This document shows positions 9,011 through 20,717 of a stretch of 22,908 nt of DNA, one piece after another. This stretch comes from Promethearchaeota archaeon. Its GTDB lineage: Archaea; Asgardarchaeota; Thorarchaeia; Thorarchaeales; Thorarchaeaceae. The position numbers and the translations under genes were made by a program. The notes below the pieces were generated by a model. It ran no database searches, was not told where the DNA came from, and saw only the letters and a list, made by a program, of their open reading frames with translations. How positions within the stretch are numbered: position 1 is the first letter of the stretch; the number at the start of each line of letters is the position of its first letter. The DNA is taken from contig JALVPN010000218.1 in the NCBI GenBank assembly GCA_027031765.1, positions 1 through 22,908 of the forward strand. Direction: 5' to 3'.

Positions 9011-9949
9011 GTGTACCGTAGCTCTTCGGTGACCACTTTGTATGTGAAGATCCGTACAGATGGAGCTGTTGGCATAGGTCGCGGAGGCGAGGGCGAGGGC
9101 GACATTGCTCTCGGCTATGGAGAGGCGCACATGATCGCTGCCGCCCTTGAGAAGCTTGCCCAGACGGCACGGAACTACAAACAGACCTACAAGAAGACCA
9201 CGGATGTGGGCAGTGGCAACAAGATCGAGTTCGAACGCAGCGACGACGGCACGATAACAATCAGTGGCGATGGCCAGACCATCATATGCTCCGAGGAAGA
9301 GATCCGCGAGCTTGCGCGTCTGCTCAAGGAACTACCACCCATCGAGGTCGCGCCGCCATCGGACTATGTCGAAACGATTCCGCCGAGCGGAGGTTTCTGT
9401 CTGGCAGTACTGGGCGACGGTGGGTCTGTCCGCCTCACGCTCCCTGATGCCGCCCTCCTCAAAATATCTGTGCTCAACAGTATGAACAGCAAGTACTATG
9501 AGGAGCCCATCGTCATAGGGGAGCGGGAGCTGAGTGTGGTGCGCACCAGTGACCTGAAGTGGGAACTGAAGGCTGATGGCGAGTCTGTTCGGTTCACTGC
9601 ATACGAGGTCGAGTCCGTGGTGGCAGGACTGCACAATGGTATCCTGGATGTGCTGATGAATCTTGTAAAGTCGATGGGCTCGGATGAGATTGCTGACATC
9701 CGTGTGAAGAGCCACATCCAGCACCTTGAACAAGAGGTCACTTTGATTCTCCAGGAACACAAGAAGGCCAAGAACATTGTCAAGGACATCATGAAGTATG
9801 GTAAGAAGGTGCTCGCCTCGGGTGAGGACGCTGATGTGCGTGCTACGGAGTTTATCGGACTGTGTCAGTACGTGTACTCGTGTCTGGACCCCGTGTACTT
9901 CGAGCCGCTCTTCGCGCTGTTTTCGTCCATCTTTGTGGTCGAGTCGTGA
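9011..9949 (+). CDS. Hypothetical protein with four beta-beta-beta-alpha repeats and a helical C-terminal domain
   Basis: 312-aa ORF with a normal coding-like composition. CGGAATAG-TTTTGTAA (BRE/TATA-like) at 8991-9006 suggests the true start may be the leaderless GTG at 9029. Confidence 0.8.
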   Translation: MYRSSSVTTLYVKIRTDGAVGIGRGGEGEGDIALGYGEAHMIAAALEKLAQTARNYKQTYKKTTDVGSGNKIEFERSDDGTITISGDGQTIICSEEEIRELARLLKELPPIEVAPPSDYVETIPPSGGFCLAVLGDGGSVRLTLPDAALLKISVLNSMNSKYYEEPIVIGERELSVVRTSDLKWELKADGESVRFTAYEVESVVAGLHNGILDVLMNLVKSMGSDEIADIRVKSHIQHLEQEVTLILQEHKKAKNIVKDIMKYGKKVLASGEDADVRATEFIGLCQYVYSCLDPVYFEPLFALFSSIFVVES

Positions 9950-10037
9950 CCGTCCCGGCAGTCCGCAACTCTTATGAGTGGGGGCCTGTCAGGCTGCGGC
10001 GGGGCTGCGGTCATCCGTGACTGTGCCCCTGCCTGCT

Positions 10038-10940
10038 ATGAGGAGGCCCACGACACTGTCGGCGCTCGGTTATCTCAGGCAACTGCACAAGCGCTGGGGC
10101 GTGCGCAGTCTGGTTCAGGCCCTCAAGATGTACCGGTTCCACAGGGTTCCCTTCGAGACCCTCCTGACGGACATGTTCGGTGCACTTGATACCTACGCCG
10201 CCAAGTTCGCCTTTCCCATTGTGGCACTGGTCGCGAGGATGCGTCCAGATCTTGTCCAGATGATTGAACGGGAGGGCCACGAGGTGGCGAGCCACGGGTT
10301 CAACCATCTACGCTACCCAAACTTGACCCCACAGGCACGTGAGGAGGACATAGTGTCCAGCCTCGCTGTCTTCGAGTCCCTTGGTGTCAGGGTACGCGGT
10401 TTCCGTGCACCCTACAACAACTATACGGATGACATGCCCCTGCTGCTGGACCGTGTTGGCATCCTGTGGGACGGGGGTTTCGGGTACCGTCCTGAACACC
10501 GCGGCCGTCACATGTTCTTCCACGTCAACCACCGCGGCCGTCGACTGTCGACCACGTTCATTCCCCTGAATGCCTGGAGCGACGACCGCATGATTGATAC
10601 CGATGGTATGGGGCCGTCCCAGATCACACGGCGTCTTGTCCACGAGGTCACACGGGTGGCAGACCTCGGTGGTGTCATAATGTTCGACTTCCACCCAGTC
10701 CGGTTTGGCCAGCCGCAGTATGTAGGCTGCCTGGCCCGGCTCGTGGAAGAGGCACATTCGCTTGGGGGGTGGTGCCCCACTCCGGCAGAGGCGGTGGAGT
10801 ACTGGGGGCAGCACGGACGGTGGCCCGGAGACGCGCGGTTCTGCCTGCTCCTGACAGGGGATATTGACAACTGGGTCTTCTCAGACTATCTGCGGCGTGT
10901 TATCTGGGCCCGTCAGGCCCGCCACCTGAGAGTGAGGTAG
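10038..10940 (+). CDS. Polysaccharide deacetylase (NodB/CE4 family)
   Basis: EVASHGFNH metal motif, GFRAPY, and a C-terminal MFDFHP motif. The start is uncertain (track start 9978; ATG 10038 preferred). Confidence 0.85.
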   Translation: MRRPTTLSALGYLRQLHKRWGVRSLVQALKMYRFHRVPFETLLTDMFGALDTYAAKFAFPIVALVARMRPDLVQMIEREGHEVASHGFNHLRYPNLTPQAREEDIVSSLAVFESLGVRVRGFRAPYNNYTDDMPLLLDRVGILWDGGFGYRPEHRGRHMFFHVNHRGRRLSTTFIPLNAWSDDRMIDTDGMGPSQITRRLVHEVTRVADLGGVIMFDFHPVRFGQPQYVGCLARLVEEAHSLGGWCPTPAEAVEYWGQHGRWPGDARFCLLLTGDIDNWVFSDYLRRVIWARQARHLRVR

Positions 10941-10947
10941 GACGGCC

Positions 10948-11409
10948 ATGGGACGACTGCTCGGTAGGCTGCTGCGTGTGCTCGCATGGCTGGCACCAGT
11001 GTACCAGTTCCGTGTGGCCTGTCACCGCAGGTGCGGCGTCAAGATTGGCAGGGGCGTCTTCATAGGCGCCAATGTCATGATTGACAGTGAGCACCCAGAC
11101 TACGTTGAGATTGAGGACTGGGCGTCAATCGGCCCGGGTGTGATGGTCATGGCGCACTCCGGTGCCAGCCCATACCACCAGCGCTTCAAGATATACCACG
11201 GCCCCCCGAAGAAGGTCACCATCAAGCGTGGTGCGTGGGTCGCGTCAGGTGCAATCATACTCCCGGGAGTGACTGTGGGCGAGGGGGCGATTGTGGCTGC
11301 GGGAGCAGTGGTGAGCCGCGACGTCCCACCAATGACAATGGTCGCCGGGAACCCCGCACGTGTCGTGCAGAAGCTCAACAGTGACGGGACGCAGGACAGC
11401 CACTACTGA
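10948..11409 (+). CDS. Hexapeptide-repeat (left-handed beta-helix) acyltransferase
   Basis: GVKIGRGVFIG, EIEDWASIGPGV, HSG, and VTIKRGAWVASGAIILPGVTVGEGAIVAAGAVVSRDVPP.TMVAGNPARV. Confidence 0.9.
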   Translation: MGRLLGRLLRVLAWLAPVYQFRVACHRRCGVKIGRGVFIGANVMIDSEHPDYVEIEDWASIGPGVMVMAHSGASPYHQRFKIYHGPPKKVTIKRGAWVASGAIILPGVTVGEGAIVAAGAVVSRDVPPMTMVAGNPARVVQKLNSDGTQDSHY

Positions 11410-11420
11410 CCCTTGAGTCC

Positions 11421-11657
11421 TCAGCCCCTGAGCTTTCGTGCGAGTGCGGCCCTGAGGTCTCCAACGGTCCAGATCTCGACGACCTCCTCGTCCTCGAAGG
11501 TCACACCGAACTCGTTCTCCACCTCGCTTATCAGTACCAGGTGGGCCATGGCGTCCCACGGTTCATAGTCCTTCCGTCTGATGTCGTCCTTCAGCTGGTC
11601 CCCGTCAAGGAGCAGCACTTTCGCGACAATCTCTGACAGCCTTTCGTCAACGCTCAT
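11421..11657 (-). CDS. acpP: Acyl carrier protein (FkbH-associated type); Ala occupies the phosphopantetheine Ser position
   Basis: 78 aa, acidic, with the ACP pattern W-D-x-M-x-H-L-x-L-I-x-E-x-E-x-E-F-G-V-x-F-x-D-E-E...TVGDL. The motif reads WDAMAH (GCC at 11552-11550) rather than WDS. It starts 9 nt after the fkbH stop, with a GAGGAG SD. Confidence 0.85.
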   Translation of the reverse strand: MSVDERLSEIVAKVLLLDGDQLKDDIRRKDYEPWDAMAHLVLISEVENEFGVTFEDEEVVEIWTVGDLRAALARKLRG

Positions 11658-11666
11658 ATCCAGCAG

Positions 11667-13496
11667 TCACTCCTCCACAAGCTCGACCCACTCCGGGACA
11701 TCCACTGTCCTCTCCGTGAGGTCGAGGGTCCACACCCTGACGCCGTCCTGTTCTACGGGCCCCTCAAAGCCGTGTTTCGAATAGAAGTCGCTGGCTGGAG
11801 CATTCTTCTTGGACGGTATGAACTCACCGACCAGTCTCTTCGCGCCACCCTTTCTGGCGTCGGCCACTATCTTGGCCAGGAAGGCGGTCTCGACAGACCT
11901 CCCGATGACCCTACAGCTCATGAGGAATGAGTCCACAACCCACTCCTCTGCGCCCTTCCTCACGATTGCCACACCGACGATGCCCTCATCGCCGAACCTG
12001 TCGCTCACGGCCATGCAGTATACGGCCACATCGCCGGAGTCGCTCATTTCCCTGACCTGCGCATCAGTGTACCGTCGTGTGGTTAGGTTGAACTGGTTCG
12101 TCTTGCCTATGAGCTGCACGACGCGTGGCATGTCGAAGTCGGTGGCCTCCCTGACTGTGACCCTCAGTCCGAGCCCCCTCAGGAAGTCTTCGAGAGAGCC
12201 GGCAGTCCGTTCCAGCTCGGCCCGCTTTCGCTTGCCGACATACATCTCACCACGGCGCATGTCCTCCTTTGTCAGGGAGAGGACGTCGAACACATCCAGT
12301 GCCTCAATGGTCTGTCTGTACAGGCGTGGGTTGCTGGGCAGGTCGACCACCATGACTTCAGGTAGCGCCTGTCTGACCTGTTCCCGCTCGTGCGGGTTGT
12401 CGTCTATGAACACCATGCTGTCGAGCCCGATGTTTATCTCATTGGCCAGCTCGATGAGGTTCTGCACCTTGCTCTGCCAGTTGATACGCAGTGCAGCGAA
12501 GTGTTCTTCCCTCAGGACCTGGTACGGGTGCTCCCTCAGTACCCTTATTGCGTCGTCAAAGTTGTTCTTGCTGTTGACGGCCAGTATCACACCCCGGTTG
12601 TAGAGGCTCAGCAGCGCCCTCTGGAACTCGACGTACTCGACGCCCGGAGAGGTCGTGCCGAGTCTGATCCCGTCGAGGCCGTCCTCCCCGACAATGCCGC
12701 CCCAGAGGGTGTTGTCGAGGTCGACGACAATGCACTTCTTTGCACGGCCTTTGAGGGCCCTGATATACCGCACGTACTCTGCCGCCAGTCTCAGTGAGAA
12801 CTCCTCGCTGAAGGGGACTGAGCCCCGGTAGTACGTGTTCCAGTTCACGGCCCGCTCCTTCCCGAGTGACGACGCCACAGAGTCCACATCCACGACGAAC
12901 ATCCGGCTGGAGTCCCTCACCCCCTCTTCCATGCGCCGGTTGGCGCCGCGGACGAACTCCCGCAGTCCCATCTCCTGCTTGTTGTCGACCACACCGAGGG
13001 GCGTGAATGTCGGTACAATGAAGTTGTTCACGAGGACAAGGGCCGATGTCCTCTCCTCCAGTCTGCGTGCAGTGTCGAGGAGCTCGGCCACGGCCCTCTC
13101 CTGTGCCTGCACGCGCTCATCGTGTCCCATCCTCACGAAATCTGGGATGAACGTCTTGTCAAGGAGTGACCATACGTCCACGGCAAGGACGACCACATCA
13201 GGCTCAAACCCGTACAGACCGGAGTTGTCGTCGAGGACTTCCTGCCTGTACGTGTTGAACCCGCCGACGAACGTCGCCACGACAAGTCCCTCCAGCCTTG
13301 CCTTGACATCGGTGCATGCTGCAAGTGGTTCCAGAGTCGCCGAGCCGATCACCGCCAGCCGCAGTCGTCTTGTAGGGTCGTCCGGCAGGTCAACTCCCAT
13401 CCTCTGGATCTTCTTGTAGGCACTCCAGTGGTTGAGGTAGCTGGGGTCCTCGCGGACGGTCGCCAGCACTTCCTCCACTGTGCTCTCATGGCTCAC
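11667..13496 (-). CDS. fkbH: FkbH-like HAD-IIIC protein (glyceryl-ACP synthase type; N-terminal SGNH-like, HAD and C-terminal GNAT-like domains)
   Basis: KKCIVVDLDNTLWGG, LAVNSKNN, INWQSK, FIDDNPHER, KTNQFNLTTRRY, DRFGDEG and FLMSCRVIGR motifs. The GTG start overlaps the acpS stop (GTGA). Confidence 0.92.
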   Translation of the reverse strand: MSHESTVEEVLATVREDPSYLNHWSAYKKIQRMGVDLPDDPTRRLRLAVIGSATLEPLAACTDVKARLEGLVVATFVGGFNTYRQEVLDDNSGLYGFEPDVVVLAVDVWSLLDKTFIPDFVRMGHDERVQAQERAVAELLDTARRLEERTSALVLVNNFIVPTFTPLGVVDNKQEMGLREFVRGANRRMEEGVRDSSRMFVVDVDSVASSLGKERAVNWNTYYRGSVPFSEEFSLRLAAEYVRYIRALKGRAKKCIVVDLDNTLWGGIVGEDGLDGIRLGTTSPGVEYVEFQRALLSLYNRGVILAVNSKNNFDDAIRVLREHPYQVLREEHFAALRINWQSKVQNLIELANEINIGLDSMVFIDDNPHEREQVRQALPEVMVVDLPSNPRLYRQTIEALDVFDVLSLTKEDMRRGEMYVGKRKRAELERTAGSLEDFLRGLGLRVTVREATDFDMPRVVQLIGKTNQFNLTTRRYTDAQVREMSDSGDVAVYCMAVSDRFGDEGIVGVAIVRKGAEEWVVDSFLMSCRVIGRSVETAFLAKIVADARKGGAKRLVGEFIPSKKNAPASDFYSKHGFEGPVEQDGVRVWTLDLTERTVDVPEWVELVEE

Positions 13497-13960
13497 TTCT
13501 TATCACCATCTCCAGCTGCGATGATACTGACTGCATCGTCCACAGCCGCACGCTGTCCCTCGCTAGGCCCCTCCCCGGCACTGTACAGGGCGACCGCTAT
13601 TGCATGGGTGGCTGAGTGGGACAGGCTCACATAGACCGTCCCCGTGCACAGACCGCCAAGACGGACATAGGGCGCACCTGACGCCTCCCTCAGTATCTCT
13701 ACTGTCCGGAGTGAGGCCGCCTGGTCGGACACCCCTGAGAGGGCCTTCAGTGTGGCCTCCTTCGCAGCAAAAGTGGCTGCAAGGTGAGGTGCCGGGTCAT
13801 CATAGCCGTAGCAGTAGGCAATCTCCCCCTTTGTGAACACTCTCTGGATGAAGTTCGACTCGCGGCCCATGTGCCTGAAGCGGTCTATCTCGATTATGTC
13901 CGCACCAATGCTCCACTCTGTGCGTCTGGTCTCGGTCAATGTTCTTCGGCCTGTGCTCAC
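13493..13960 (-). CDS. acpS: Holo-ACP synthase (4'-phosphopantetheinyl transferase, AcpS type)
   Basis: IGADIIEIDRF, RVFT..EI.YC, FAAKEA.LKAL, EI....GAP and VSLSH motifs. The true start may be TTG 13939, given the TATA position. Confidence 0.9.
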   Translation of the reverse strand: MSTGRRTLTETRRTEWSIGADIIEIDRFRHMGRESNFIQRVFTKGEIAYCYGYDDPAPHLAATFAAKEATLKALSGVSDQAASLRTVEILREASGAPYVRLGGLCTGTVYVSLSHSATHAIAVALYSAGEGPSEGQRAAVDDAVSIIAAGDGDKK

Positions 13961-13996: not shown

Positions 13997-15445
13997 TCAC
14001 TTTTCCGGGACACCCGACCCGTCCTTGTCGACCGCTCCCAACACGGCCGTCGACCAGGGGTACCGTTCGAGGACTCTCTCGAACAGCCTCCTGACCTTCT
14101 TCTCCTCGGACGTACCGGAGTAGGCGAGCAACACCACGAGGCCGCCGCGGGTGCGCTTGAACTTCTGGTACATGGTCTTTGTGGTGTTGATAGTATCACA
14201 GACGACCATCAGGTCAGCCTGCGGCAGGTCGAGGTCACGTTCGCCCACTGGCGACATCACCAGTACCCTTGTCTGAGGGTCTTCACGGAACCTGCGGAGG
14301 ACAGCCCCCTTGTCACGGGTGCTGCCGGTCACTGTGACAACATGCAGGCCTGCCTTCTCAAGGACATCTTCTATCTGTCGCACCATCTCTACATACGAGG
14401 TCAGTACCACTGTTTTCTGGTACCGCACTGCAAGTCCGAGTACCTTTGTGACCTTCGCCGAGACCGATGGCAGCGAGCGCCTGAGGGCTGCAACGTCAAA
14501 ATAGTGCTGCAAGTAGTCGTTGTAGAACTTCCTGACAAGGCTCTTGGGTGGCATCGCGAAGACGAACTTGCGGAGCATCAACAGCCCCGTATACCGGCCC
14601 TTCAACTCGTCCCGGACTGGCAACCGCTCTATCATCAGGTATAGCCTGCGGGGGTCGCCCTCGATAAGGTGGAGATTGCCACCCTCTTCCAGTTCGGCAA
14701 CAATCTCGGCCTTGGTGCTTGCCAGCAGCTCGTCGAGGACCGTCGAAATCGCCCTGATGTGGTCGTCTGTAACAGTGACGACCGTCAGCAGAGTGGGCCT
14801 CAGATAGTCGGTCACATCGGTCTGGTACAGGTCCTCCATGGCTATGAGCTCGAGGTCTGGCAGGTGCTCCCGCAGGGTGGTCAGCTCGTCCCGTATCTCA
14901 AGCTGCTCGCCGGTCAGCACCGCATGGTCATCACGGATGGTGCCGCTCATTGCGATGACCCACTTGTTGCGGATCAGTCCGACCAAGTGCGACCAAGGGT
15001 ATACCAGGGTGGCGCTGTCACCGTGTCTGCGCACCATCTTGTCGACCTCGTTTATGATCACCATGTCAAAGGGCTCTATCAGTGACGGGTCGTCTGTGAG
15101 AACCGAGGCGAGGACCTGGGGTGTGGCCACTACGACCCGCTTCTCCCGCATCACGTATGCCCTCCTCTTTGACGGCACCCTCGACGAGAGCTCACCGATG
15201 CAGTCCCCTAGTCTGCCGTACTCATCACGGAGGTACTGGATGGTCTCTGCAAGTGAGGACGACGAGTGGACAATGATGATGGCCCGCGCGTCCGCGAACC
15301 GTTCAGCGACTATCTGGTGGGTTATGAACCTCTTGCCGAGTCCGCAGTCCAGCTCTATCAGCACATCCCGACCACGCAGCCCCTCCAGTCGCTGGAGGAT
15401 GTACTCCTGATACCCCCGGGGGGTGTATTCCTCGTGTTGTGGCAT
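13997..15445 (-). CDS. Divergent Hef/FANCM(ERCC4-like helicase)-type SF2 protein, two RecA domains, no nuclease domain
   Basis: Start moved to ATG 15445 (482 aa). Q motif PRGYQ, Walker A-like LDCGLGKR, Ib VVATPQ, II NEVD, III SGT, V SPVGERDLDLP, VI QKFKRTRG. Confidence 0.8.
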   Translation of the reverse strand: MPQHEEYTPRGYQEYILQRLEGLRGRDVLIELDCGLGKRFITHQIVAERFADARAIIIVHSSSSLAETIQYLRDEYGRLGDCIGELSSRVPSKRRAYVMREKRVVVATPQVLASVLTDDPSLIEPFDMVIINEVDKMVRRHGDSATLVYPWSHLVGLIRNKWVIAMSGTIRDDHAVLTGEQLEIRDELTTLREHLPDLELIAMEDLYQTDVTDYLRPTLLTVVTVTDDHIRAISTVLDELLASTKAEIVAELEEGGNLHLIEGDPRRLYLMIERLPVRDELKGRYTGLLMLRKFVFAMPPKSLVRKFYNDYLQHYFDVAALRRSLPSVSAKVTKVLGLAVRYQKTVVLTSYVEMVRQIEDVLEKAGLHVVTVTGSTRDKGAVLRRFREDPQTRVLVMSPVGERDLDLPQADLMVVCDTINTTKTMYQKFKRTRGGLVVLLAYSGTSEEKKVRRLFERVLERYPWSTAVLGAVDKDGSGVPEK

Positions 15446-15482
15446 CTCGTCCACTTGTCGGCATTCCCCGTTATTAGGCCCG

Positions 15483-15881
15483 CTAGAAGGCCTTGAACAC
15501 CTTTGCCAGCGACGGCCCGCACACATGCATTGCAAACTCGTTCAGCCCCGCGTGCACAATATGCACGTCGTACTCGCGTGTCCGCAGGCGGGTGGCGGTC
15601 TCCTCGATAATTGCCTGTGCCTCTTCGGGTGTGGCCTTCTCTCCACCAAGGTGTGCAAAGGAGTGCAGCACCACCTGTCTGAGCCTGTGCTTCTGGGCAA
15701 TCCAGCGGATATTCTTCACCATCTTCCTGAGCACGGCGGTCCTGTCGTCTATGTCCTTGCTCTCAGCCTCAACCCAGACGAGGATGCAGTCTTCAAACCG
15801 GGTGGCGGTCCCACTGCTGTCACTGTCCTCGTCGTATGGGGCGTACCAGTAGTCCTTCACATGGAACATGAGCATCCGCAT
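15483..15881 (-). CDS. Free-standing archaeal threonyl-tRNA synthetase editing domain (DTD-like fold)
   Basis: MRMLMFH start, central VVLHSFAHLGGEKATPEEA, and C-terminal F.MHVCGPSLAKVFKAF, paralleling the archaeal ThrRS N-terminal editing domain (MRxLxIH...PF/YAHL...GHPLAELSR). Confidence 0.8.
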   Translation of the reverse strand: MRMLMFHVKDYWYAPYDEDSDSSGTATRFEDCILVWVEAESKDIDDRTAVLRKMVKNIRWIAQKHRLRQVVLHSFAHLGGEKATPEEAQAIIEETATRLRTREYDVHIVHAGLNEFAMHVCGPSLAKVFKAF

Positions 15882-17819: not shown

Positions 17820-18857
17820 TTGTCATTGAGTGACGAGACTCGGAACTTGCTGAAACGGCTTGGGGCTATCCAGTCCTCCGAGAACCTCCCCCGGTCACTG
17901 CAGATACTCATTGCGCTCCTCCGGAGTCAAGGCTCACCTATGAGGCCCCTGTCATTCGGTGAGCTGTATGGTGCGATGCAGCAGATAGCTGGGTCGGACC
18001 TGACGAGGGCATGGGTGCACAGGGTCTTGAAAGGTCTTGTCGATGATGGCATTGTGAAGACCATGCCGGGCAAAGGACGGGCCCGGTACTACACGGATGT
18101 GGACACGATTGCCGACGGTCTGGAGCGCATGCGGGAGGCCCGGATGACGCACATCCGTGAAGAGGTCGCAGCGTTGCATGCCGAACTCGTGGAGCTTGAG
18201 AAGTGTGACTGTACTGCTCTTGCCGAACGTCTGTACATGGAGGTCACAGGGACGAGTTCAGCCCCGTGCTCGAGGCTGCTGAAGGGAATAGACGAGTTCC
18301 ACGATGTGACTAGCGAACTGATATACCGTGTGGCGCGTCAGGGTGATGTGATCCGCACCTGCCCCCTGTGGGTCAGTGAGTTCGTGGAGAATGCGCTGGT
18401 GCGTCTATCCCGACTCCTCGTCGCAGCTGAGCAAGGGGTTGAGATACGCTATCTCCTGACCAGCGACGCCTTCGTCCTTGACGATGTGCTCAGTGCAAAC
18501 GTGGACTTTGATGGTGTCCGGAAGTTCTTGGCAAAGACCTTGGAGCTCAGGAGGGCTGGCAAGAAACTCGATGTCCGGGTGTATTTTGGGCCCAAGGACA
18601 CATATCAGTTCGTGGCCCTCAACTCCGAACGGATTGCGTTCCTACTTGCTAGAGAGCCAATCACCGCTGTGTACTTCACCCGCGCCTTCAACGCAGACCT
18701 CATTGATGCCACGATTGCCACTTTTGATGTCAACTGGGAGAACGCAGTTTCCATGTTCGACCCGACCGTTCTGGAGCGGTTCCCACGTAGGGGCTTCATC
18801 CTAGATGCCCTCCTACGCTCTTTCGAGTCAGATGGCAGTGGGGGGCCCGGTAAATGA
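17820..18857 (+). CDS. TrmB-like transcriptional regulator 1 (winged HTH, coiled coil, PLD-like effector domain)
   Basis: TTG start with GAGGTGA SD. wHTH SFGELY...TRAWVHRVLKGLVDDGIV...RARYY; heptad helix; C-domain GVEIRYLL...YQFVALN...TFDVNWENA. Confidence 0.75.
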   Translation: MSLSDETRNLLKRLGAIQSSENLPRSLQILIALLRSQGSPMRPLSFGELYGAMQQIAGSDLTRAWVHRVLKGLVDDGIVKTMPGKGRARYYTDVDTIADGLERMREARMTHIREEVAALHAELVELEKCDCTALAERLYMEVTGTSSAPCSRLLKGIDEFHDVTSELIYRVARQGDVIRTCPLWVSEFVENALVRLSRLLVAAEQGVEIRYLLTSDAFVLDDVLSANVDFDGVRKFLAKTLELRRAGKKLDVRVYFGPKDTYQFVALNSERIAFLLAREPITAVYFTRAFNADLIDATIATFDVNWENAVSMFDPTVLERFPRRGFILDALLRSFESDGSGGPGK

Positions 18858-19780
18858 GTCGTGACCGACTATCAGGGGCCCTCTCGCTCCTTGGCATGAA
18901 TCTGGACAGGAAGCCCATGCGTGTGCTGGCGGCTGTTATCAGTGCGTGTTCCCATGAGGACAGACCGGCAACGTTTGCAGAGGTCTACGCAGAACTCCTG
19001 AGGTCTGAGGAGCATGACCCGGGGGCCAAGCCGCTTGTGTACCGGATGTTGTCAAGACTGGAGCGTTCCGGCCTCGTGCAGGTTGACAGGAGCTCGTATC
19101 ATCACCGGTACTGGGTTGACAGGGGTCTGTTGACCGTAGCCTTCCACGAACAGAAGTATAGGACCATCACCATCAACCAGGCACGTATCAAGGAACTGCG
19201 GGGACAGGCCCAGCGCATCAGTATGCTTGACCCCTCGGCCCTTGCACAGGCCATGATTGCTCACATGACCAACAACCTGGTGGAGCGCTCGCGCTCGGCT
19301 ATCGGCGCCGCGGTCACCTCGAAGCTTGTTGAAGAGTATGTATATAGCCGTGCAAAGTCAGGAGACACCATACGTATTGCCCTGTCAAGTGTTCCAATGG
19401 GTCGAGAGCACCTGCGCATACGGGTAGACCGGTTGAAGGAGATAGTGAGCCAAGGTTGCCGTGTACATGCAATACTCTACTCTTTCCACACGTGCCCCCC
19501 TGAAACAGCCGAGTCCCTGATGTCCATCCGAGTGTCTACCGCAGAGTCATCTCCGCTCCGTGTGCTGTACAGCGTGGAGCCTATCCGTAGCTACCAGTTC
19601 GTTGCACTCAACAAGGAGAACATGTTACTTGTAGTGTCCACGAACCCTCTCGCAGTGGTTCTCGTAACACATAGGATGCAGCCGCGCATCATAGAGGACG
19701 TTATCGAGCGCTTTGATGCTGACTTTGAGAGAATGATACACGAGCTGGAACAGGACGGCGGGGTGCCAAATGGACTATGA
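18854..19780 (+). CDS. TrmB-like transcriptional regulator 2
   Basis: ATGA overlap with the upstream gene. wHTH ATFAEVY...PLVYRMLSRLERSGLV...HRYW; C-domain GCRVHAIL...YQFVALN...RFDADF. Confidence 0.75.
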   Translation: MSRDRLSGALSLLGMNLDRKPMRVLAAVISACSHEDRPATFAEVYAELLRSEEHDPGAKPLVYRMLSRLERSGLVQVDRSSYHHRYWVDRGLLTVAFHEQKYRTITINQARIKELRGQAQRISMLDPSALAQAMIAHMTNNLVERSRSAIGAAVTSKLVEEYVYSRAKSGDTIRIALSSVPMGREHLRIRVDRLKEIVSQGCRVHAILYSFHTCPPETAESLMSIRVSTAESSPLRVLYSVEPIRSYQFVALNKENMLLVVSTNPLAVVLVTHRMQPRIIEDVIERFDADFERMIHELEQDGGVPNGL

Positions 19781-20717
19781 GGAGATGCAGGACTGGCTGG
19801 CCCTGTTGGGGCTTGACCTCTCGTCACGAGAGATGTTGATTCTGCGGGCAGTACTACGTATCGCCACACAGTCTGGAGGGTTTGCCACTGCCGCTGACAT
19901 CCACAAGGAGATTGCGCATACGGAGGAGCGAAGCATTGCGAGGTCGTGGATATACAAGTGCTTGGCCTCTCTTGAGAAACAACACTTCATCCTGGCCGAC
20001 CATGTGGCCTCTCCCAAACGCTATATCGCAACTGAAGACACTGTGCGTGCGGCCATCGAGTTGCTGATCCGTCACCGCTCTCAAGACATAGAGTCTGAGA
20101 TCCGTACACTGAAGGATAGTCTCCGTAAGACGGAGAGTGTGAGTCCTGCCCAGGTCGCGAACGACCTCTATGACTACGTGTTGGGAGAGCATGATGGCAC
20201 TCGTGCAACGACCCTTGAGAGCGCACAGCAAATCCGCGCTCTACTGACCGAGAAGATACAGGCCCTTCCAGCTGGTTCCATTGTCAGGGCAATAGAGCCA
20301 TCCCTGACGTACGATGTTGAGAGCATACTTTGGGACGTGGTCGAAACTGCTCTGGCGGCCGTGAAACGCGGTGTGAAGTTCCGTGTCCTGTTTGTAGTTG
20401 CGCCTGATGACTACAGGGTCGATACGGTATATGATGCTATCGACTCCTATGGTCCCGAGGCCAAGAGTACCATACTGTCCTCCAAGATTGAACTCCGACA
20501 CATACTCCGCGAAGGACTGACATACCGGGCAATCGTGTTCAATGACGAGTCGATGATACTGATTGTGACCGCAATGGCCCCGCTAAGCCAAGGCGTGTTC
20601 CTGACGCGGGACGACAACCCGCTGCTCATCCGTGATACCATTGCCAAGTTCGAGGAGTACTGGGCCCAGGGACGTGAACTTGCAAAGGCCATCCGTGAAC
20701 TCCAGCGTGATGGCTAG
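19770..20717 (+). CDS. TrmB-like transcriptional regulator 3
   Basis: 11-nt overlap with the upstream gene. LLGL.LS.RE..IL.A, ATAADI...RSWIYKCLASLEKQHFI...PKRY; C-domain RGVKFRVL...YRAIVFND...KFEEYWAQG. Confidence 0.8.
   Translation: MDYEEMQDWLALLGLDLSSREMLILRAVLRIATQSGGFATAADIHKEIAHTEERSIARSWIYKCLASLEKQHFILADHVASPKRYIATEDTVRAAIELLIRHRSQDIESEIRTLKDSLRKTESVSPAQVANDLYDYVLGEHDGTRATTLESAQQIRALLTEKIQALPAGSIVRAIEPSLTYDVESILWDVVETALAAVKRGVKFRVLFVVAPDDYRVDTVYDAIDSYGPEAKSTILSSKIELRHILREGLTYRAIVFNDESMILIVTAMAPLSQGVFLTRDDNPLLIRDTIAKFEEYWAQGRELAKAIRELQRDG

Follow-up and report, generated by a model that had tools for sequence, protein, structure and literature searches.

An alanine at the phosphopantetheine position of a Thorarchaeota carrier protein encoded beside an FkbH-like loader, a candidate recent null allele in an otherwise intact cassette

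The window, which is the whole stretch of DNA that was analysed (22,908 nucleotides), is an entire contig, one of the 229 that make up a 2.95-Mb genome; this genome is 95% complete and comes from a low-coverage metagenome bin. It contains a gene for a small carrier protein (ACP) that sits on the minus strand together with genes for an FkbH-like loader and a 4'-phosphopantetheinyl transferase (PPTase) of the AcpS type, and that is met from the other side by an arm of three plus-strand genes. The features to which the text refers are as follows.

9011..9949, plus strand: conserved 312-aa protein, the first gene of the plus-strand arm, without a Pfam or NCBIfam match; syntenic in 10 of 10 relatives
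9978..10940, plus strand: 320-aa member of the polysaccharide deacetylase family (PF01522); syntenic in 10 of 10 relatives
10948..11409, plus strand: 153-aa acyltransferase of the left-handed beta-helix (hexapeptide) type, convergent with the ACP gene; syntenic in 10 of 10 relatives
11421..11657, minus strand: stand-alone 78-aa homologue of ACPs, from the W-D-S-[MLF]-x-H subfamily found alongside FkbH-like loaders
11550..11552, minus strand: codon 36 of the ACP gene, GCC (Ala), aligned with a TCN Ser codon in all relatives
11667..13496, minus strand: FkbH-like loader, 609 aa, with FkbH_N, a HAD-IIIC phosphatase domain and a C-terminal domain bearing the SCR cysteine; motifs intact
13493..13960, minus strand: AcpS-type 4'-phosphopantetheinyl transferase, 155 aa, overlapping the start of the FkbH gene by 4 nt
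13997..15535, minus strand: SF2 helicase-like protein, 512 aa (DEAD, Helicase_C and ResIII matches), directly upstream of AcpS in most of the 10 relatives
17820..20717, plus strand: three consecutive ORFs of 345, 308 and 315 aa, weakly alike and without a Pfam match; the trio is found in most relatives

The 78-aa protein is matched by the Pfam PP-binding profile (PF00550) at 22.6 bits, the cut-off being 20.8, and a search of the whole 95%-complete genome with the same profile returned no other protein. Its codon 36 is the reverse complement of positions 11550-11552 (ggc) and reads GCC, which places an alanine in the context E32-P-W-D-A-M-A-H-L40. When a profile of the orthologues is aligned with solved ACPs, e.g. 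2ehs, 4dxe and 2n50, column 36 falls on the serine of their 'DS' motif. The AlphaFold2 model (pLDDT 92, pTM 0.81) has the four-helix fold of an ACP, with helices at residues 3-14, 36-50, 56-61 and 65-77, and in this model Ala36 is predicted to cap the N-terminus of helix II, which in carrier proteins is the place of the serine that bears phosphopantetheine. The codon, the profile alignment and the model thus agree with what had been noticed from the sequence alone, that the attachment serine of the ACP is replaced by Ala36 and that GCC is a single substitution away from TCC. The same observation had equated residue 36 with Ser36 of E. coli ACP by its index, and here the positional homology holds and the identity of the index does not: the E. 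coli number is that of the mature protein, with the residue becoming Ser37 if Met1 is counted, so that the shared 36 is a near-coincidence and it is positional homology that counts.

The protein therefore has the profile match, the four-helix bundle and the association with a PPTase and a loader that are expected of the PP-binding family, and it lacks the phosphopantetheine serine, having Ala36 in its place. Judged on these grounds it is an orthologue by descent which, as encoded, would be no functional carrier. The gene itself is an ordinary carrier protein gene of a conserved Thorarchaeota cassette, and what it carries is a null or miscalled allele of the known FkbH-associated W-D-S-x-x-H group of ACPs, not a new kind of carrier.

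The loader begins the list of partners, with its stop separated from the start of the ACP gene by 9 nt. It matches TIGR01686 at 315 bits (cut-off 147), and nearly all of 11 genomes have the identical motifs DLDNT259, SKN309, DDN365, KTNQFN465 and SCR527. Its N-terminal and HAD domains also match Bacteroides fragilis BF1531 (PDB 3slr; E = 1.8e-46, residues 43-409), a 387-residue chain deposited as an uncharacterized protein, although the match stops at residue 409 of 609 and leaves the C-terminal SCR domain outside. That the FkbH-like protein loads a glyceryl unit is probable by analogy with characterised homologues (PMC7489565). A second HAD-IIIC/FkbH-like match in the same genome scores 30 bits, below the cut-off, and lies in a 175-aa frame (G000:C46:13161-13430) which is probably an unrelated small HAD phosphatase. 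The AcpS is recognised by both PF01648 (56.3 bits, cut-off 25) and TIGR00556 (65.9 bits, cut-off 45), keeps the motifs GxD19, KEA67 and SLSH112 as do those of ten relatives, and is the sole PF01648 match in a search of the genome. With the catalytic motifs of both enzymes in place, the earlier impression that the neighbouring PPTase and FkbH are intact is borne out. The hexapeptide acyltransferase on the other side of the ACP gene is presumed to be the user of the acyl-ACP.

The orthologues of the ACP come from metagenome bins of Thorarchaeota (Asgard), and the arrangement around it is kept in 10 relatives from nine other genera, with protein identities of 42-79%. The conserved order is the gene without a family match, the deacetylase and the acyltransferase, convergent with ACP, FkbH, AcpS and the helicase. 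The helicase may be either a part of the cassette or merely a stable neighbour, and in one relative (G015) about 3 kb separate it from AcpS. Further along the window, the ORF trio at 17820-20717 cross-matches the same loci in relatives at 21-38% identity. Within the family the ACP, a full-length FkbH and AcpS occur together, in the same 11 of the 24 other genomes (12 of 25 when this one is included), and in the other 13 of the 24 genomes searched not one of the three was found. By this all-or-none co-occurrence ACP, FkbH and AcpS form an accessory unit, and a null allele in such a unit could be tolerated. One relative has a second and divergent set on a different contig (G005:C32:12419-24115), made up of an ACP with 29% identity to the query, a weak match to ACPS and an FkbH domain (E = 3.6e-77); by its appearance this cassette is a paralogue or a separate acquisition.

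It is apparent from every collection of relatives that serine is the rule at column 36. The 15 orthologues taken from the protein collection (Thorarchaeota, 61-79% identity) all have serine, and so do the genomes of all eleven relatives, where it is encoded by TCC, TCG or TCA; it is again serine, always TCN, in 63 of 63 related loci from the genome_contigs and metagenome_contigs collections, among them bacterial members as distant as about 30% identity. A wider set of family sequences, 148 of them representatives of 50%-identity clusters, gave 162 with serine out of 164, the two without being the Ala36 ACP and a degenerate domain, the second in a two-domain protein that has WDS in its first. 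With that degenerate domain excepted, each of the other family members examined, roughly 225 in all, has serine at column 36. The nearest relative, 79% identical in amino acids and known from a 1.5-kb NCBI contig, has GAC-TCC-ATG where this genome has GAC-GCC-ATG, with identical flanks, and the two codons differ by a single T-to-G transversion at codon position 1. All 27 of the 27 columns that are invariant among the orthologues are kept by the Ala36 protein, and its one departure at a nearly invariant column is at column 36.

The alanine is thus, as far as the alignments reach, private to this assembly. Serine in all close orthologues with alanine in this strain alone was one of the outcomes that the earlier note had named as refuting its claim, and this is the outcome of the alignment, which has the form of a private loss of function. 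The first of the three explanations offered there, a recent inactivating mutation or an assembly error, is the one that gains from these counts (15 of 15, 63 of 63 and 162 of 164). An evolved Ser-less look-alike would be recognised by an absence of serine that is conserved among relatives under purifying selection, and alanine was found in one assembly only. Among the roughly 225 other family sequences, many of which are likewise from low-coverage bins, no comparable lesion was found, which fits a null allele and an artefact alike. In the profile search the top match, a protein of 3397 aa (P0017), was set aside as spurious, as it consists of about 53 tandem repeats of about 59 aa without a WDS motif and its score is a sum of weak matches.

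The remainder of the gene and of the module shows no sign of decay. At columns invariant in the ten other genomes, the private deviations of this genome number one in the ACP, which is S36A, seven in FkbH, all of them conservative, and one in AcpS, with the counts for FkbH and AcpS falling within the range of the other genomes. The mean identity of the ACP to the others is 0.66, where the others have 0.61-0.70, and the means for FkbH (0.66) and AcpS (0.48) are also typical. Against the nearest relative the ACP gene has a dN of 0.15 with a saturated pS of 0.75, compared with a dN of 0.18 and a dS of about 2.3 for FkbH and a dN of 0.12 for the acyltransferase. Over the ACP gene as a whole, dN is by this estimate much less than dS, a statement which the synonymous saturation confines to the whole gene and does not extend to this branch. 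As the dN and pS are like those of FkbH and the acyltransferase, the ACP gene appears to have been constrained through nearly all of its history, and the change at codon 36, if real, would be very recent. The view that a long decay would not have left the remaining ACP pattern so well conserved is therefore upheld by the identities, by the private deviations and by dN.

The base itself can be followed only a little way into the public data. A search of public runs found a single run that contains the locus, a hydrothermal vent metagenome which is probably the source sample and which is kept as Logan contigs; no RNA run containing the locus was among the public runs listed. In the vent run 95% of the sampled words are present, at a word depth of about 8.5-9.6x, and near-identical contigs span 10999-11492 and 11553-12453. 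No contig of the run at 99% identity lies over 11493-11552, which leaves codon 36 uncovered, and this hole is no evidence for or against the base. The right-hand contig begins one base past the first position of the codon, and the gap is the stretch that encodes the most conserved part of the protein. The gap could arise from a branch in the graph caused by a second allele, from k-mers held in common with a second related organism, or from low depth. The vent run also contains a 1336-base contig (depth 8.7) with less than 90% identity to conserved parts of the FkbH gene (12177-12602), which points to a second related organism with an FkbH-like gene in the sample, and this organism may be the cause of contig breaks in conserved stretches. 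Conspecific sequence was sought in several ways: an exact pattern with NNN at the codon gave 0 matches in metagenome_contigs, the 90% protein cluster has one member only, a search for shorter protein fragments at contig ends returned none, and the closest loci in the scans for related loci are at most 75% identical.

The codon also has a local context that bears on how it may have changed or been misread. Positions 11545-11552 read GCCATGGC on the plus strand, a G+C-rich palindrome that is a perfect 8 bp given the C at 11552; the TCC codon of the nearest relative would shorten it to CCATGG. The extension is not significant, having a chance of 1/3 for a random substitution. Short palindromes are a context in which template-switch mutations and sequence-specific miscalls are discussed, and those that are rich in G+C are associated with sequence-specific miscalls on Illumina instruments.

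The balance of the evidence leans slightly towards Ala36 being a genuine and very recent loss-of-function allele, fixed or segregating in the sampled population. In the relatives, to judge from homologues (PMC7489565) and from the gene content, AcpS would convert apo-ACP to holo-ACP by placing phosphopantetheine on Ser36, FkbH would then load a glyceryl unit from 1,3-bisphosphoglycerate, which is derived from glycolysis, onto the phosphopantetheine arm, and the hexapeptide acyltransferase would transfer the glyceryl unit onward, with an amino sugar that the deacetylase has exposed as the plausible acceptor. In this genome one T-to-G change would have converted the Ser36 codon from TCC to GCC, and if the base is real the Ala36 protein would be expected to fold and to escape phosphopantetheinylation, locked in the apo form. 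An ACP locked in this way would leave the only AcpS of the genome, and its FkbH, without a substrate, and S36A would then mark the earliest damage to an accessory cassette, one which is absent from many members of the family. The effect proposed for the substitution has a counterpart in Staphylococcus aureus, where S36A DltC was not modified by AcpS in vitro and no longer activated its partner (PMC8972799). The likeness is close, as it is the same substitution at the homologous serine that caps helix II, although the DltC variant is a laboratory construct and Ala36 is in a natural assembly and is known from that assembly alone. What the sequences show is the codon, its restriction to this assembly, the intact state of the rest and the all-or-none distribution of ACP, FkbH and AcpS; we infer, in the reading of a null allele, the correctness of the base call and the null effect of S36A in this protein as well as the chemistry of the cassette.

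Against the null allele stands the fact that a cassette freshly inactivated and otherwise untouched is a short-lived state, improbable a priori to about the same degree as a consensus error is here, and that the base comes from one assembly of a low-coverage metagenome bin (about 9x). It is quite conceivable, if on the doubtful side, that the alanine is an artefact of assembly or sequencing, or a rare read variant that entered the consensus, and that the organism truly has Ser36 (TCC) and a cassette that functions as in the relatives. The codon is one base from the TCC of the nearest relative within identical flanks, the gene and its partners are otherwise unaltered, just as an error would look, the word depth is low (about 8.5-9.6x), and the site is within the G+C-rich palindrome described above. 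Assemblers want a k-mer in at least two reads and favour the better-covered path, and at about 10x a wrong substitution seldom enters the consensus, probably at fewer than 1 in 100,000 bases, which counts against an artefact here. Nor does the contig look ridden with errors, as the syntenic genes of the 22.9-kb window align nearly full length without signs of frameshift and the private-deviation counts of the genome are in the range of the others.

The two remaining explanations put forward in the earlier note have the Ser-less state as something other than a lesion. A pseudo-ACP would have evolved to act without serine on AcpS, FkbH or the acyltransferase, be it as a non-covalent adaptor, as a decoy or as a regulator, and the Ala36 protein could still bind these partners, as the fold and all the other conserved surface residues are kept. 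However, the Ser-less state is not conserved in relatives, being confined to one assembly, neither the ACP nor its partners show a change that goes with it, and the genome has no second ACP with a serine, so that a decoy would have nothing to regulate; with alanine in no relative and the partner genes unchanged, this explanation found no support and is distinctly unlikely. It is very improbable, too, that an apo-locked ACP has been selected, at the level of the genus, to regulate or scaffold the set of AcpS, FkbH and acyltransferase without a covalent bond and has been caught just after its origin. The attachment of the cofactor or of an acyl group at another residue, or by a different chemistry, is barely credible, and it likewise gained nothing from the analysis: the four residues on either side of position 36 include no Ser, Thr or Cys that might compensate, cysteine is absent from the entire protein, and the only other serines are S2, S8 and S44, the last of which is inside helix II in the model and is also serine in most of the relatives that bear Ser36. 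The AcpS is ordinary, with residues that match the AcpS of relatives serving Ser36 carriers.

The nearest systems in which the chemistry is known are the FkbH-type glyceryl-ACP pairs, namely the methoxymalonyl-ACP genes of FK520 and the tetronate pairs Mad7/Mad8 and Mad14/Mad12 (PMC7489565), which are alike in having a stand-alone ACP beside an FkbH-like HAD/acyltransferase protein. The Thorarchaeota FkbH matches the FkbH domain model and keeps the HAD motifs and the SCR cysteine. In contrast to those systems the window shows no PKS, dehydrogenase, methyltransferase or FabH-like partner, the partners being instead a hexapeptide acyltransferase and a protein of the deacetylase family, the host is an Asgard archaeon, and the carrier is without its serine. 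The six-gene cassette of the 10 Thorarchaeota relatives is the same in gene set and order and differs in having serine where alanine is found only here. A phrase search of the literature for natural ACPs said to be without the conserved serine gave no result.

If the null allele is real and frequent in the population, the cassette would be dispensable in that habitat. By itself Ala36 is of minor importance, being either a snapshot of the first step in the loss of an accessory gene set or a base-call problem in a low-coverage bin. The case also carries a caution, that single active-site changes in metagenome bins should not be taken as biology without the reads. A more interesting object than Ala36 is the cassette itself, with a dedicated ACP, an AcpS and an FkbH loader in Asgard archaea, a group in which ACP-based chemistry is generally taken to be missing. 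Two further genomes of this phylum have an ACPS domain within much longer open frames, of 3235 and 3524 aa (G039:C21:45562-45771 and G028:C24:28359-28877, respectively), which suggests that giant multidomain synthase-like proteins with a built-in PPTase exist in Asgard archaea, and the second of these genomes has a full FkbH-domain match as well.
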